A program made the translations under genes and the position numbers. From an uncultured Rhizobium sp. (GTDB lineage Bacteria > Pseudomonadota > Alphaproteobacteria > Rickettsiales > UBA1997): 64,000 bases of DNA. Every line of letters starts with the position of its first letter. Position 1 is the first letter of the stretch. The notes beneath the pieces are model-generated. The model did no database searches and had not been told where the DNA came from. It saw only the letters and a program-made list of their open reading frames with translations. Positions 431-61,462 of this stretch are shown piece after piece. The DNA is taken from the NCBI GenBank assembly GCA_964447395.1, contig CAYUSO010000006.1, positions 10,154 through 74,153 on the forward strand, read 5' to 3'.

Positions 431-565
431 TCTTAAGTTCCCCGAGCGTTCTTAGTTCCCCGAGCGGAGTCGAGGGGATGAGAGTCGGCTTTTTCACCCC
501 TCGACTCCGCTCGGGGAGCTAAGAACCCGCGAAGAGCTAAGAACTCGAGGGGAGCTAAGAACTTG
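431..565. repeat. Family A palindromic element, compound copy A1
   Basis: Core AGTTCCCCGAGCGGAGTCGAGGGG at 454-477 and its reverse complement at 497-520, with a 19-nt spacer. Flanked by degenerate sub-repeats: cttaagttcccc/cttagttcccc on the left and gagctaagaac three times on the right. Confidence 0.9.
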
Positions 566-3613: not shown

Positions 3614-3678
3614 AAACGATGACGATTTAGCTATGGATCTAGTGCCAGACTGGGTCTGCAACCCACGTCCCGCATCGA

Positions 3679-3757
3679 GATCTCAGCTCCCCGAGCGAAG
3701 TCGAGGGGACGTGAGTTCGTTTTTCCACCCCTCGACTTCGCTCGGGGAGCTGAGATC
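3679..3757. repeat. Family A palindromic element, copy A2
   Basis: gatctcagctccccgagcgaagtcgagggg at 3679-3708 and cccctcgacttcgctcggggagctgagatc at 3728-3757. Imperfect pairing extends outward (cgtcc at 3666-3670, ggacg at 3767-3771). Confidence 0.9.
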
Positions 3758-3844
3758 AACCGTTGGACGGGGGTTCAAATCAGGTCCTGCATCTCGTTTA
3801 ATCTGTCATTCCGAAACTTGTTCCATGATTCGTCTTTCCGCAAA

Positions 3845-5092: not shown

Positions 5093-5128
5093 GAGAGAAT
5101 TTTTCTTAAGAATTTAGTTTATATTAAA

Positions 5129-5195
5129 GCCCCTCGACTCCGCTTGGGGAACTAAAAAACTCCAATTTTTAGTTCCCCAAGCGGAGTCGAGGGGC
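5129..5195. repeat. Family A palindromic element, permuted copy A3
   Basis: gcccctcgactccgcttggggaact, then a 17-nt spacer, then agttccccaagcggagtcgaggggc. The arms are in the opposite order to A1, A2, A5, A6, A7 and A8. Confidence 0.9.
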
Positions 5196-5213
5196 TATTT
5201 TTTCAAATTCATC

Positions 5214-7094
5214 ATGCGCTCCCCTCCACTATTGTCAATCCGCGACGCCACTATCTCCTTCGCCAAAAAAGTTCTTTTTGAAAATCTTCATCTTCATCTT
5301 TTTCCGCGTGATCGCGTTTGCTTGATTGGCAAAAATGGCGTCGGAAAAACTAGTTTGATGAATGCGATTGCTGGACAATTTGATCTCGATTGCGGTGAAC
5401 GCTGGATCACGCCTCACGCCATTGTTGGTTATTTGACGCAAAGTGAAAAACTGCCTTCAGGCCTTACGGTGTTTGATTTCATCATGTCTGGCATAAAACT
5501 TGATGAGCATAAAACTTACCTCATCGACATCGTTTGTGATCACCTAAAAGTCGATAAAAATGCCTTCACACAAAATCTTTCTGGTGGGCAGAAACGCCGC
5601 GTCAATCTTGCTCGCGCATTGGTTTTAGAACCTGATATTTTGCTACTCGATGAGCCAACAAATCACCTCGATTTGGAAGTGATTGAATGGTTAGAAAATT
5701 ACTTACAGAGCTTTCAAGGCGCGCTGCTAGTGATTTCGCACGATCGCAAATTTCTCGAAAAAATTTCCAACAAAGTTTTTTGGCTGCGCGCCGGACAGTT
5801 AAAAATTAATCAAAACGGTTATCGCGATTTCGATGAATGGTCGCAAAAAATTATCGAGCATGAACAAAGAGAGTTGACGAATTTAGAAAAGAAAGTCGGA
5901 CTCGAAAGCGGCTGGCTACAAACCGGTGTGACCGGAAGAAGAAAAAGAAACATCGGTCGCCTCCACTATTTGCAAGAGTTGCGAACGAAATTGGAAGCGC
6001 AAAAAAGATTGGTAAAAGCGAATCAGAGCTACATGAAAATCGAATCGCAAAAAATCGAGGAAGACGCGCCGCAGGTGATTTTGAGTTTGAATAATGTGAG
6101 CAAGAGTTTTTCTCGAGACCCCTCGACTCCGCTCGGGGAGCCGAATGAATCTAGTTCCCCGAGCGAAGTCGAGGGGCCAAAAAACCTCATCGAAAAATTC
6201 TCCCTAAAAATCCTCCGTGGCGAAAAAATCGGAATTATCGGCCGCAATGGCGCAGGAAAATCTACGCTTTTAAAAATGATGATTGGTGAAATTAAGCCCG
6301 ATTCTGGAACCGTCAAACCAGCCCGCGACATAAGCATTTCCTACTTCGATCAATCGCGCAGTAAAATAAAACCGACTTCAACAATTCAAGAAATTCTCTG
6401 CGATTCTGGTTCCGATTACGTCAAACTCGCTGGCGATAAAACCATGCATATTTGCGGCTATCTCAAGAATTTTTTATTCGATCCCAAAGAAACTCAAACA
6501 TTGGCCGGAACATTGTCTGGCGGGCAACAAAACCGTTTATTGCTGGCAAAAACTTTGGCGAATCCGGGAAATTTTATGATCCTCGACGAACCAACAAATG
6601 ATCTCGACATGGATAGTTTGGATATGTTGCAGGAATATTTGATGAGCTACAAAGGCACGCTAATCGTGGTTTCACACGATCGTGATTTTTTGGATAATGT
6701 GGCAACAAGCATTCTTGCCTTTGAGGGAAATGCAAAAATAAGTAATCATGTTGGCGGTTATTCGGATTATTTGGAATATAGGCAGAAGCATGATTCTCCT
6801 GTCCCCAAAGCGCCTCCAGTCTCTTCAAAAACTATTGAAAATATTGCTGTTGCGAGTGGAAATTCGAATGCAAAAAAACTCAGCTATAAGTACCGACTTG
6901 AGCTCGAAAAACTTCCGCAGAAAATTGAGAAGCTTGAAGAAAAAATTCGTGAGCTGAGTGAAGAGTTGAGTGAGACTGAAGATAGGAATTCGGCAAATTT
7001 GGCCCATATCGCAATTGAAATCGCAAAATATCAGAAGGAGCTTAATGCTGCGGAAGAGCGCTGGCTTGAGCTTGAAGAGATGAATCAAGTTTGA
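5214..7094 (+). CDS. uup: ABC-F family ATPase, Uup-like, carrying an in-frame family A element
   Basis: 626 aa. Two ABC cassettes: Walker A GKNGVGKTS and GRNGAGKST, signatures LSGGQKRR and LSGGQQNR. C-terminal coiled coil KLSYKYRLELEKLPQKIEKLEEKI. Confidence 0.9.
   Translation: MRSPPLLSIRDATISFAKKVLFENLHLHLFPRDRVCLIGKNGVGKTSLMNAIAGQFDLDCGERWITPHAIVGYLTQSEKLPSGLTVFDFIMSGIKLDEHKTYLIDIVCDHLKVDKNAFTQNLSGGQKRRVNLARALVLEPDILLLDEPTNHLDLEVIEWLENYLQSFQGALLVISHDRKFLEKISNKVFWLRAGQLKINQNGYRDFDEWSQKIIEHEQRELTNLEKKVGLESGWLQTGVTGRRKRNIGRLHYLQELRTKLEAQKRLVKANQSYMKIESQKIEEDAPQVILSLNNVSKSFSRDPSTPLGEPNESSSPSEVEGPKNLIEKFSLKILRGEKIGIIGRNGAGKSTLLKMMIGEIKPDSGTVKPARDISISYFDQSRSKIKPTSTIQEILCDSGSDYVKLAGDKTMHICGYLKNFLFDPKETQTLAGTLSGGQQNRLLLAKTLANPGNFMILDEPTNDLDMDSLDMLQEYLMSYKGTLIVVSHDRDFLDNVATSILAFEGNAKISNHVGGYSDYLEYRQKHDSPVPKAPPVSSKTIENIAVASGNSNAKKLSYKYRLELEKLPQKIEKLEEKIRELSEELSETEDRNSANLAHIAIEIAKYQKELNAAEERWLELEEMNQV
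6119..6176. repeat. Family A palindromic element, permuted copy A4, inside the uup ORF
   Basis: cccctcgactccgctcggggagc at 6119-6141 and agttccccgagcgaagtcgagggg at 6153-6176. Translated in frame as DPSTPLGEPNESSSPSEVEG. Confidence 0.9.
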
Positions 7095-7641: not shown

Positions 7642-10302
7642 CTACAGCGCTGCTCTTGCTGCTGCTAATCTTGCGATTGGAACGCGATAAGGTGAGCAGG
7701 AAACGTAATTCAAGCCGCTGCGGTGGCAGAATTCGATTGATGCGGGATTGCCGCCGTGTTCGCCGCAGATTCCTAGTTTGATGTCTTTTCTGGTCGCCTT
7801 CCCTTTCTCGGCAGCAATTTTGATTAACGCGCCGACGCCTTCTTGGTCCAGCTCGGCAAAAGGATCTTTTTCTAAAATTCCGGCTTTTTGGTAATGGCCG
7901 AGGAAGTTTGCAGAATCGTCGCGACTTAGGCCGAAAGTGGTTTGCGTTAAGTCATTAGTGCCGAAGCTGAAAAATTCTGCTTCGTGAGCAATTTGGTCAG
8001 CAATCAGTGCGGCTCTAGGAAGCTCAATCATTGTTCCAACCAAATATTTCAATTTTACGCCATGCTCTTTTTCAACTTCTCTTTCAGTTGCGACGATTAA
8101 ATCTTTCAAAATTTGTAGCTCTTTTCGCGTTGCAACTAGTGGAATCATGATTTCCAAAAGCACGTCTTTTTTAGTTTCTTTTTTGACGATTGATGCCGCT
8201 TCAAAAATTGCCCGCGCCTGCATTTCGTAAATTTCTGGATAAGAAATTCCGAGACGGCAACCGCGATGGCCAAGCATTGGATTTTGTTCCTGCAACTGAT
8301 GCGTGCGATGTTTTACGTAAGAAACATCAACACCGACAGCCTTCGCTACTTCGACAATTTCGGAATCTTTATGCGGCAAAAATTCGTGAAGAGGTGGATC
8401 GAGTAAGCGAATCGTCACCGGCAATCCAGCCATGATTTTGAAGATCTCGATAAAATCTTGGCGTTGCATCGGAAGCAATTTTGCTAGCGCTTTTTTGCGA
8501 CCATCAACTTCTTCAGCGAGAATCATTTCGCGCACTGCAATAATGCGATCTTCGCTGAAAAACATATGCTCGGTGCGACAGAGTCCAATGCCTTCGCAAC
8601 CAAAGTCACGAGCGGTTTGGCAATCAAGCGGAGTTTCAGCGTTGGTGCGCACTTTTAGCAGACGAATTTCATCTGCCCATTCCATGATTTTTTCGAAATC
8701 GCCCGATAAATTTGGTTTTAAAGTTGGCACCGAACCGAGAATTACATCACCGCTTGAGCCGTTGATGGTTATGGTTTCACCCTCTTTCACCTTCACGCCA
8801 TTTGCAGTGAAAAATTGTCCGCCGTGATCGACGTGCAAACCAGATGCTCCTGAAACGCAAGGTGTTCCCATGCCACGCGCCACAACGGCCGCGTGCGATG
8901 TCATGCCGCCGCGCGCGGTTAAAATTCCTTGCGAAACATGCATTCCCTTGATGTCTTCCGGACTAGTTTCGACGCGAACTAAAATAACTTTTTCGCCATT
9001 TTCAGATTTCTTTTCTGCTTCAGCCGAAGAGAAAACCACAATGCCTGAAGCCGCGCCAGGAGAAGCTGGAAGGCCTTTGCATAAAATTTTAATTTTAGCT
9101 TTTGGATCGAGAGTTGGGTGCAAAAGTTGATCCAAACTCGCTGGATCGATGCGCTTCAAAGCCTCTTTTTTATCGATCAATTTTTCGCCAACCATATCAA
9201 CGGCAATTTTCACCGCAGCATGCGCCGTGCGTTTGCCGTTACGGGTTTGCAGCATCCAAAGTTTTTTATTTTGCACGGTGAATTCGATGTCTTGCATGTC
9301 GCGATAATGCGCTTCCAATTTTTTGTAAATCTTCACCAATTCCGCAAAAACATCAGGCATGGTTTCTTCCATCGAAGGTAGTTTCGAGCCAAGCTGCTCT
9401 TTACCAGAGATCGTGATTGATTGCGGAGTGCGAATGCCGGCGACGACATCTTCACCTTGCGCATTGATCAAATATTCGCCGTAAAGTTCTTTGGTTCCCG
9501 TTGATGGATTGCGCGTGAAAGCCACGCCAGTAGCGGAATCGTCGCCCATATTGCCAAAGACCATTGATTGTACGTTAACCGCAGTTCCCCAAGCGGCGGG
9601 AATGTTGTTGAGCTCGCGATAGACGATGGCGCGATTATTCATCCAAGAAGCAAAAACCGCTTCAACAGCGCCCCAGAGCTGTTCGTGGACATCTTGCGGA
9701 AAATCGCGACCGAGTTCTTTTTTCACTTCGGCTTTAAAAAGTTCGACAATTTCTTCGAGATTTTCGGCGGTGAGATCAGTGTCGGCGCTAGCTCCAAACT
9801 CGTGTTTTTTTTCATCAAGAATCACTTCGAAATTGTGATGATCGGCGCCCAAAACAACGTTGGAATACATTTGGATGAAGCGGCGATAGGAGTCGAAAGC
9901 GAAGCGTTTATTGGCAGAATTTTTGGCGAGACCTTGCACGGTTTTGTCGTTTAATCCCAAATTCAAAACTGTGTCCATCATGCCTGGCATTGAGGCTCTA
10001 GCACCGGAGCGCACTGAAAATAAAAGCGGATTTTTTGGATCACCAAATTTTGCACCAATTTTTTCTTCAATTTGCTTCAAGGCGATTTCAAGCTGAGATT
10101 TTAATTCTGCCGGAAATTTTTTTTCGTTTTTGTAGTAAGCATCACAAACTTCGGTTGTGATCGTGAATCCTGGTGGAACTGGTAAGCCCATTTTTGACAT
10201 CTCTGCAAGATTGGCGCCCTTGCCTCCGAGAAGGTTTTTCATTGAAGCATCGCCTTCAGATTTTCCGTCGCCGAATGAGTAAACGAATTTTTTTGCAGTC
10301 AT
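7642..10302 (-). CDS. ppdK: pyruvate, phosphate dikinase
   Basis: 886 aa. Phosphohistidine motif GGMTSHAAVVARG, GLCRTEHMF, and a C-terminal PEP-utilising TIM-barrel domain. Confidence 0.97.
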   Translation of the reverse strand: MTAKKFVYSFGDGKSEGDASMKNLLGGKGANLAEMSKMGLPVPPGFTITTEVCDAYYKNEKKFPAELKSQLEIALKQIEEKIGAKFGDPKNPLLFSVRSGARASMPGMMDTVLNLGLNDKTVQGLAKNSANKRFAFDSYRRFIQMYSNVVLGADHHNFEVILDEKKHEFGASADTDLTAENLEEIVELFKAEVKKELGRDFPQDVHEQLWGAVEAVFASWMNNRAIVYRELNNIPAAWGTAVNVQSMVFGNMGDDSATGVAFTRNPSTGTKELYGEYLINAQGEDVVAGIRTPQSITISGKEQLGSKLPSMEETMPDVFAELVKIYKKLEAHYRDMQDIEFTVQNKKLWMLQTRNGKRTAHAAVKIAVDMVGEKLIDKKEALKRIDPASLDQLLHPTLDPKAKIKILCKGLPASPGAASGIVVFSSAEAEKKSENGEKVILVRVETSPEDIKGMHVSQGILTARGGMTSHAAVVARGMGTPCVSGASGLHVDHGGQFFTANGVKVKEGETITINGSSGDVILGSVPTLKPNLSGDFEKIMEWADEIRLLKVRTNAETPLDCQTARDFGCEGIGLCRTEHMFFSEDRIIAVREMILAEEVDGRKKALAKLLPMQRQDFIEIFKIMAGLPVTIRLLDPPLHEFLPHKDSEIVEVAKAVGVDVSYVKHRTHQLQEQNPMLGHRGCRLGISYPEIYEMQARAIFEAASIVKKETKKDVLLEIMIPLVATRKELQILKDLIVATEREVEKEHGVKLKYLVGTMIELPRAALIADQIAHEAEFFSFGTNDLTQTTFGLSRDDSANFLGHYQKAGILEKDPFAELDQEGVGALIKIAAEKGKATRKDIKLGICGEHGGNPASIEFCHRSGLNYVSCSPYRVPIARLAAARAAL

Positions 10303-57620: not shown

Positions 57621-57688
57621 TAGTTCCCCGAGCGGAGTCGAGGGGTTAAGAGTTTGCTTTCTTACCCCTCGACTCCGCTCGGGGAACT
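57621..57688. repeat. Family A palindromic element, copy A7
   Basis: tagttccccgagcggagtcgagggg at 57621-57645 and cccctcgactccgctcggggaact at 57665-57688. These are perfect 24-nt arms with a 19-nt spacer. Confidence 0.92.
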
Positions 57689-59169: not shown

Positions 59170-59188
59170 AGTTTAAATTTTTTTGGCT

Positions 59189-59280
59189 TAGCTCCCCGAG
59201 CGGAGTCGAGGGGTTCGCGAGTAAAACTCAAATCCCCTCGACTCCGCTCGGGGAACTGAGGTGATGTCGGAGAGCTGAGG
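59189..59280. repeat. Family A palindromic element, copy A8
   Basis: tagctccccgagcggagtcgagggg at 59189-59213 and cccctcgactccgctcggggaactgag at 59234-59260. An extra partial sub-repeat gagctgagg lies at 59272-59280. Confidence 0.9.
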
Positions 59281-60004: not shown

Positions 60005-60161
60005 AATTACGATTTAGGATTTAGGATTTACGATTTTTTATGGCGGTTATCACTGCAGATGGAGACAGATCCAGAAACAAGTTCGGGATCTGTCTTTAAA
60101 TCACGAGATTAACAACAATCAGCTTACTAAACCCCAAATCATAAATCGTAAATCGTAAATT
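60005..60161. repeat. Heptamer-tract palindrome E1 (CGATTTA/TAAATCG repeats), filling the COQ9-like|argD divergent spacer
   Basis: Left arm aattacgatttaggatttaggatttacgatttt at 60005-60037. Right arm aaatcataaatcgtaaatcgtaaatt at 60136-60161. The ~100-nt interior contains D2. Confidence 0.88.
60063..60095. repeat. Family D hairpin element, copy D2 (nested inside E1)
   Basis: agacagatccagaaacaagttcgggatctgtct. This forms a 14-bp stem with one mismatch and a 5-nt loop. Confidence 0.88.
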
Positions 60162-61338: not shown

Positions 61339-61395
61339 AAGGTCTGAAAATTTTAGCAAAACAGCGTTAAATCTGGGGCGCTCTTGGGGCGCAAA

Positions 61396-61425
61396 TAGAT
61401 CCCGAAACAAGTTCGGGATCTGTCT
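61396..61425. repeat. Family D hairpin element, copy D3
   Basis: tagatcccgaaacaagttcgggatctgtct, lying between the convergent argD and the PopZ-like gene. Confidence 0.85.
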
Positions 61426-61462
61426 TCGCGAATCACAAAATCCAGAAATTTAAAAACTAAAA

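Follow-up and report, generated by a model that had tools for sequence, protein, structure and literature searches.

The stretch of DNA analysed here, which we call the window (64,000 nucleotides of contig CAYUSO010000006.1, assembly GCA_964447395.1), carries eight dispersed GC-rich palindromes, referred to here as Family A (copies A1 to A8), whose repeated unit also occurs across bacterial phyla and in phages, and at part of the bacterial loci is associated with a small GIY-YIG gene. The window has a G+C content of 41%, while the copies reach 54-66% over total lengths of 58-170 nt. When both strands were searched with the 24-nt core AGTTCCCCGAGCGGAGTCGAGGGG, allowing up to three mismatches, 15 matches were obtained against 0.00 expected from 100 shuffles, all of them at the eight sites that a preliminary description of this DNA had named. 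Both arms scored at seven of these sites; the second arm of A6 (23799-23822) is too degenerate, its arms being 79% complementary. A half-core match at 9583-9595, in the PPDK gene, was set aside as isolated and is not a copy.

The copy coordinates in that description agree within a few bases with our inverted-repeat scan, which placed A1 to A4 at 436-538, 3679-3757, 5128-5196 and 6119-6176, and A5 to A8 at 22659-22820, 23752-23826, 57622-57688 and 59187-59260. It had put the arms 11-20 nt apart; the paired 24-mers are separated by 10-20 nt, so the upper bound stands and the lower one does not. As it also claimed, six copies are intergenic and two lie in intact open reading frames (ORFs). Of the intergenic ones, three occupy divergent spacers, one a convergent gap and two stand between co-directional genes; the ORFs are those of uup and zapE. 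The eight copies fold at -45 to -112 kcal/mol, with z-scores of -7.4 to -18.7 against their own shuffles. They are listed below; the names fabG and trxB at A7 come from translations read by eye.

A1, 431..565, plus strand: ampD/maeB spacer; inner doublet with arms at 454-477 (+) and 497-520 (-) and spacer 478-496, plus a half-module at 436-448 and degenerate 18-nt repeats at 521-565; fold -89.6 kcal/mol, z = -10
A2, 3679..3757, plus strand: convergent DUF1674/M16-peptidase gap; 30-nt arms of perfect complementarity, 19-nt spacer; fold -67.6 kcal/mol, z = -12.4
A3, 5128..5196, no strand assigned: divergent M16/uup spacer; reverse-complement module, 7-nt loop, forward module; 31-nt perfect arms, stem variant CCCCAAGCGGAGTCGAGGGG; fold -61.8 kcal/mol, z = -13.5
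A4, 6119..6176, no strand assigned: in frame in uup (ABC-F; 5214-7094, plus strand); opposite arm order
A5, 22659..22828, plus strand: in frame in zapE (22340-23644, minus strand); inner doublet 22706-22773, two to three 21-nt tandem half-module repeats per side, 71-nt arms that are 90% complementary; fold -111.5 kcal/mol, z = -18.7
A6, 23752..23826, minus strand: divergent zapE/nuoM spacer; most degenerate copy, spacer reversed
A7, 57621..57688, plus strand: between fabG (upstream) and trxB (downstream), both on the minus strand; 25-nt perfect arms, 17-nt loop; fold -60.4 kcal/mol, z = -12.5
A8, 59187..59280, minus strand: between COQ9 and cvpA, both on the minus strand; doublet 59187-59260 followed by a degenerate half-repeat to 59280, spacer reversed; fold -61.3 kcal/mol, z = -9.2

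The whole palindrome had been taken as the repeat unit. Our comparison of the arms leads to a different unit, a hairpin module of 22-24 nt (CCCC / GAGCGGAGTCGA / GGGG), which occurs in two arm orders and in tandem halves. In the window, a stem of 4-5 bp (CCCC/GGGG, usually with an AGTT extension) closes the 12-nt loop GAGCGGAGTCGA, and the combination of the 12-nt loop GAGCGNAGYCGA with a complementary stem of at least 4 bp fits exactly in 13 of the 16 arms. A1, A2, A5, A6, A7 and A8 read core, 19-20 nt spacer, reverse-complement core, while A3 and A4 alone read reverse-complement core, spacer, core. Since reverse-complementing a palindrome leaves its arm order unchanged, these are two architectures made from one building block. 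The spacers of A1, A2, A5 and A7 align to the reverse complements of those of A6 and A8 (consensus ATGAGAGTTTGCTTTCnTA), as had been noticed before, and these six copies share descent and polarity. A3 and A4 cannot be the same palindrome as these six, whichever way they are turned. In A1, A5 and A8 the outer half of the module is additionally repeated in tandem every 18-21 nt, for example AGTTCCCCGAGCGTTCTT followed by a full module. Two folds are open to a doublet: a single long hairpin or cruciform, or a pair of small hairpins.

Insertion and turnover at orthologous sites

Both copies inside genes are in-frame additions to the protein. The residues encoded by A4, roughly SRDPSTPLGEPNESSSPSEVEGP, separate the first two strands of Uup's second ABC domain, and the alignment of the window protein to E. 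coli Uup breaks at this point. The baseline among uup orthologues is 603-604 aa, reading NNVSKTFGEKALIDKFS at the A4 site, where the window protein is about 22 residues longer; other relatives have unrelated palindromic inserts at the very same codons. Similarly, A5 adds about 55-60 residues to ZapE, whose orthologues are mostly about 350 aa long and have no insert. Among the relatives, locus L108 has no insert at this site, L110 is longer by only about 15 residues, and in L109 another palindrome is present. The uup and zapE sites are therefore hot spots, in which unrelated palindromic families occupy the very same codons in relatives. The earlier analogy with the Rickettsia palindromic elements (RPEs) is borne out in this respect, as the latter are also found within intact genes. 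Selection for stop-free frames was considered and set aside: two to four of the six frames are open per copy, which is not clearly above background. The nearest named homologues come from metagenome-assembled genomes (MAGs) labelled 'Rickettsiales bacterium'.

The intergenic copies behave in the same way when syntenic loci of relatives, at about 80% protein identity, are compared:

A1 site: empty in L176
A2 gap: in L175 and L176, a doublet of another variant with a catgct stem, catgctGAGCTTGTCGAagcatg
A3 spacer: in L175, a catgct-type doublet, catgctGAGCTTGTCGAagcatg; in L176, nothing
A6 site: in L110, the closest relative, a counterpart module arm (17-40) upstream of zapE

The stem variant follows the lineage, with CCCC in the window and L110, CATGCT in L175 and L176, and CACCCT in L109. 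Since orthologous sites are empty or hold other variants, the copies are lineage-specific insertions with turnover and not conserved regulatory sites. Family A copies have thus been inserted recently, and the mobility that had been proposed for them survives the comparison with relatives, in which positional conservation would have spoken for a regulatory role.

A2 itself is centrally placed in a degenerate palindrome that belongs to another family and is older (about 3650-3673 and 3766-3788). This third family, of type GGACGGGGTTTGTAACCCCGTCC, is decayed where it hosts A2, is also present in L175 (about 1530-1640), and occurs in frame in the Uup proteins P0242, P0244, P0245, P0247 and P0250, with peptides such as SRTGLQT and RTGFVTPS. 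A tRNA or tmRNA around A2, where a GGTTCAAAT-like stretch occurs, was considered and rejected: ARAGORN reported nothing, the Rfam tmRNA model scored 6 bits, and the flanks are the arms of the older palindrome.

One could imagine that these palindromes are RNA or DNA structures selected by the host, such as stabilisers of mRNA 3' ends, intercistronic attenuators, RNase III sites, or nucleoid or topoisomerase binding sites. The hairpins are very stable, and A7 and A8, between co-directional genes, and A2, in a convergent gap, occupy the kind of position in which E. coli's repetitive extragenic palindromic sequences (REPs) act. Against this, the sites are not conserved among relatives, three copies stand in divergent promoter spacers and two in coding regions, and a terminator scan called no copy as an intrinsic terminator and found no terminator-like U tract at any of them. 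Nor is there a match to an Rfam family: with Rfam 15, no hit reached the gathering threshold in the window, the only hits being spurious microRNA hairpins around A2, and none was obtained at the GIY-YIG loci described below. A host function would also leave unexplained why modules flank GIY-YIG genes, and we consider it very unlikely.

A cross-phylum module and its GIY-YIG neighbour

The core of Family A is not private to the genome of the window. The exact 21-mer TCCCCRAGCGRAGTCGAGGGG occurs in more than 107 contigs of a species-representative genome collection, cultured strains included, from Bacteroidota, Myxococcota, Fibrobacterota, Spirochaetota, Patescibacteria, Actinomycetota, Acidobacteriota, Alpha-, Beta- and Gammaproteobacteria, and others, against an estimated chance expectation of about 1 (even base composition) or about 7 (all genomes at 65% G+C). 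Many of these genomes have the core within a longer stem that is specific to the genome, and in sphingomonads it forms inverted doublets, as in the window. Searches elsewhere gave little: blastn found no match in plasmids, and a metagenome scan with the 24-mer found three unrelated contigs with no GIY-YIG gene on them.

What is conserved in this module became clear from 86 distinct examples taken from those loci by the loop GAGCGNAGYCGA alone, with the hits of the search pattern left out. Their five flanking stem positions are paired in 82% of cases, compared with 56% in shuffles, and the stem covariation score is 0.716 against 0.26, a value reached by none of 500 shuffles and well above the slid controls (0.13-0.19). 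Since the stem covaries while the loop stays, the conserved object is a hairpin whose loop is invariant and whose stem is free. These data show a cross-phylum module with the conserved loop GAGCGNAGYCGA and a lineage-specific, covarying stem.

Phages carry the module as well. On phage contigs, modules lie next to portal, terminase, capsid and primase genes, and one is in frame within a primase-like ORF (L266 3361-6759, reading …FDSAQSPGDPSVPSTPLSHQG…). Another sits in frame in a MurF/alanine-racemase-like ORF of a Flavobacteriales MAG (L017 3357-5927, …ERSPSEVEG…). In-frame insertion is thus not peculiar to the lineage of the window.

All-against-all clustering of the ORFs from the 107 module loci returned only one recurrent non-housekeeping neighbour, a protein of about 100 aa present at 11-12 of the 107 loci in at least six phyla. 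It is a GIY-YIG domain (Pfam, E about 1e-15 to 1e-18), and among solved structures the UPF0213 proteins 1zg2 and 1ywl are nearest, followed by SLX1; no match was found in PHROGs or PADLOC. The other recurrent neighbours, in these and in 120 phage loci, are ordinary (ABC ATPases, porins, short-chain dehydrogenases, histidine kinases and phage structural genes). The gene is framed by modules in a fixed manner: the forward one precedes the start codon by 15-50 nt, and the reverse one directly follows the stop codon. This polarity of module, gene and reverse module is that of the six window copies of the first type with the gene removed. In L085, a possible relative, which has a G+C content of 0.41, like the window, the module downstream of the GIY-YIG gene matches the window core over 23 nt.

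The association also holds when one starts from the gene. A profile search returned at least 7,974 GIY-YIG homologues, and among the best 120 of these, 67 have an ORF that extends past the domain; in 61 of the 67 the extension runs into module-encoded peptides such as GFDSAQP, PLDSARG, RSLSEVEG and SGVEG. At the DNA level, we took four homologues with long contigs and no extension, picked regardless of the motif, and found modules with other stems around all four ( gtcgcc/gtcgac, ggtggt/accacc, gttggc/gccag and ggtgcc/ggcacc). These four genes sit inside operons, for example between thiC and thiE or between hsdM and hsdS, and one of the loci, L172, shows a pattern of tandem half-modules like that of A1 and A5. 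A tight physical association of the modules with the GIY-YIG gene in other genomes is therefore shown.

Three observations at such loci may be added. In L172 to L174, from three samples, a type I restriction-modification operon holds the GIY-YIG gene and its modules at the same place, with hsdM on one side and hsdS on the other. In two Brumimicrobium-like assemblies (L165 and L166, 2700-3750), the gene stands between tandem arrays of at least ten modules (gtcgccTTCGACTACGCTCAgtcgac) with a period of 41-62 nt, and runs of N at these arrays suggest that they break assemblies. Finally, L045 and L085 belong to a lake MAG (CAMDJN01) with 40-41% G+C and a propionyl-CoA carboxylase, whose title, 'Rickettsia typhi', looks mislabelled.

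The origin of gene-less doublets

On balance, and with little more than even confidence, we favour the view that Family A consists of gene-less, non-autonomous doublets of the GIY-YIG-linked hairpin module, spread by the nuclease acting in trans. Two modules inverted around a spacer of 10-20 nt make up a doublet resembling the REP doublets known as REPINs. Under this scheme, a UPF0213/Slx1-type GIY-YIG nuclease would recognise and cut the module hairpin or the cruciform of the doublet, and repair or copying after the cut would then spread modules and gene-less doublets in trans. Their targets would be intergenic spacers, the tips of other palindromes and, occasionally, permissive protein loops entered in frame, while tandem half-modules would be scars of this spread. 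The half-module repeats and the insertion of one palindrome within another fit a cut at the loop or close to it, after which repair would be slipped or templated; the half-module repeats suggest GAGCG|GAGTCGA as the place of the cut. We infer that the GIY-YIG protein is the mobilising enzyme, that a GIY-YIG gene is present in this genome, and that the active form of the module is DNA and not RNA. If so, the host genome is expected to contain a GIY-YIG gene flanked by (A)GTTCCCCGAGCGGAGTCGAGGGG.

Eukaryotic Slx1 cuts branched and hairpin-like DNA, and this fits a structure-specific reading of the modules. Like the UPF0213/Slx1-like proteins (E. coli YhbQ, 1zg2, 1ywl), the product of the module-flanked gene is a stand-alone, minimal GIY-YIG domain; unlike them, the module-linked subfamily has a C-terminal extension, which ends around LAEC.NESH. 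By contrast, a phylogenomic survey of GIY-YIG proteins describes the prokaryotic Slx1-like ones as mostly inherited vertically, with a proposed role in DNA repair (PMC1564403).

Several observations weigh against our proposal. Neither the 64-kb window nor roughly 52 kb of the relatives' loci contain a GIY-YIG homologue, which makes mobilisation in trans something that we infer. The gene is near modules in none of the 120 phage-contig stretches. Modules are missing around the 51 more distant GIY-YIG relatives found on viral contigs (28-64% identity) and, within 10 kb, around E. coli yhbQ, whose product is 32% identical. These cases rule out that every GIY-YIG gene is module-flanked and limit the link to one GIY-YIG subfamily, whose nuclease activity is putative. 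No cleavage site was defined, and in the relatives the empty sites are too diverged for the junctions or a target-site duplication to be delimited.

The association also comes without a direction, and the gene could be a parasite homing into modules that already existed. In this alternative, it would be a free-standing homing or parasitic gene that targets modules, just as some insertion sequences target REP sequences, while the modules spread by another route, for which hairpin-driven replication slippage or template switching, recombination, or another enzyme are candidates. The numbers speak for it, as modules far outnumber genes (12 of 107 bacterial loci and none of the 120 phage loci have one), and so does the position of the gene, which like a selfish insert is found within arrays of modules and amid operons. 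Moreover, the nesting of A2 in another palindrome and the presence of different families at the same sites show that palindromes themselves are targets. However, a loop conserved across phyla calls for a reader that is conserved too, and apart from this gene no conserved neighbour came to light; the geometry around the gene and the gene-less doublets also share the same polarity. We consider this alternative improbable, yet the most serious competitor to mobilisation by the GIY-YIG nuclease.

It is also tempting to compare Family A with classical REPINs, which would be mobilised by a REP-associated tyrosine transposase (RAYT, of the Y1/HUH, IS200/IS605 type) encoded elsewhere in this genome. 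The two share short, GC-rich, multi-copy hairpins, inverted doublets with short spacers, a mostly extragenic location, variants by lineage, and one small flanked gene, a logic that resembles the REPIN-RAYT systems (PMC3116915, PMC3337134). RAYT-type systems may even exist in this clade, since in the uup gene of L176 (7001-8881) the hot-spot palindrome starts with GTAGGGGCGACCCTTGCG, is GTAG-tagged and REP-like, and REPs of this type may coexist with the module. In contrast, neither GTAG nor CGTC, one of which is conserved at one end of the REP unit (PMC3733652), is found in the module AGTTCCCCGAGCGGAGTCGAGGGG or in its flanks. The conserved part of the module is its loop, across phyla and phages, and copies lie in frame in essential genes. 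The gene that modules flank elsewhere encodes a GIY-YIG protein and not a Y1/HUH transposase, and no Y1 transposase was found in the scanned ORFs of the window or among the recurrent neighbours at the 107 and 120 loci. We therefore give little credence to a RAYT origin, and hold both it and the host-selected hairpin to be less likely than the homing gene.

Other mobile repeats offer partial parallels. The preliminary description saw a non-autonomous repeat of the type of miniature transposable elements with inverted repeats (MITEs) or REPs, with no transposase in the window. The absence is confirmed, since Pfam gave no transposase or RAYT domain in 20 window ORFs and the remaining ORFs were judged by eye to be housekeeping, and the repeat is indeed dispersed and non-autonomous; the REP tag and the insertion-sequence partner are what does not carry over. 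Like MITEs (Correia/NEMIS, RUP, ERIC, Nezha), Family A is non-autonomous, has inverted termini and a strong structure, lies near genes, and presumably has an autonomous partner elsewhere. Unlike them, it is built as a hairpin within a hairpin with alternative arm orders, and does not look like a deleted insertion sequence. No transposase of the insertion-sequence type stands next to modules in 227 loci, where the GIY-YIG nuclease is the only recurrent partner. The autonomous-looking relative that exists in other genomes is a small GIY-YIG gene flanked by inverted modules and not a transposase gene.

RPEs resemble Family A in their Rickettsiales-like alphaproteobacterial host, their palindromic nature, the lack of a transposase, in-frame insertion at permissive sites and the decay of copies. 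They differ, in a comparison made by description only, in that Family A is made of modules of 22-24 nt and is GC-rich in a genome of 41% G+C. We know of no link between RPEs and a GIY-YIG gene. The GC clusters and double-hairpin elements of fungal mitochondria are also GC-rich mobile palindromes in AT-richer genomes, and can sit in coding regions. They belong to a different host compartment and were compared by description, as an analogy only.

Returning to the GIY-YIG nuclease, we could speculate further that the phage-carried, cross-phylum modules, with their near-universal loop GAGCGNAGYCGA and lineage-specific stems, are the cognate substrate of one minimal UPF0213/Slx1-like subfamily. They would form a second system like REPIN-RAYT, with a GIY-YIG enzyme in place of the tyrosine transposase, of which Family A, and probably much of the traffic of RPE-type in-frame palindromes in Rickettsiales-like bacteria, would be gene-less offspring. 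We put this wider proposal forward tentatively, at somewhat less than even confidence.

Other repeats in the window and the meaning of a GIY-YIG link

Family A is not the only repeat in this DNA. A second family, made of (AGTCGTA)n heptads, forms a palindrome in the mnmG ORF (17612-17717) and a one-sided run in zapE (23258-23295), where it encodes a window-specific insert of about 19 residues (…HKTRLTTYSLQLTT…), so that zapE carries two different in-frame repeats. AT-rich palindromes of tandem (AATTAAG)n heptads occupy the spacer upstream of the ORF at 43179 (43077-43176), and in L109 (5060-5360) similar heptad arrays are the outer arms around a module doublet with a caccct stem in the nuoM/zapE spacer.

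A short box, AAGACAGATCCCGAA, has 11 sites in the window (2.3 expected), which often form inverted pairs close to the starts of genes (567-581, 23681-23710, 38263-38371, 42388-42402, 60062-60096 and 61392-61426). The one beside A1 overlaps TTGACA and is kept in L176, which lacks A1; it may be a site for a promoter or a regulator. A palindromic pair of the box AAGACAGATCC (38261-38373) lies just upstream of an ORF at 38863-40284 that we read by eye as dnaA (Walker-type GGVGMGKTHL and a C-terminal DnaA-like region), and the replication origin region may be in the window. Adjoining zapE, an ORF of 1,392 aa (18155-22333, minus strand) has only a sub-threshold NADAR match, and relatives have a large domainless protein (1,232-1,370 aa) at the same position (L108 4881-8579).

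A full-text search of the literature, whose coverage is incomplete, found the core sequence in no paper, and likewise found no paper linking GIY-YIG with REP, REPIN, RAYT, MITE or surveys of structured RNA. The GIY-YIG partnership stands a substantial chance of being new. If the link is true, it would supply bacterial palindromic repeats of a very widespread class with a concrete, testable candidate enzyme and, conversely, offer the uncharacterised UPF0213 GIY-YIG proteins a possible natural substrate. Recurrent peptides such as LDSARG, FDSAQG and SLSEVEG would then be translated repeat modules, which matters for annotation. Finally, Family A and its relatives would offer a tractable model of how palindromes enter proteins in frame, with loops in Uup and ZapE that have been hit independently by several families.

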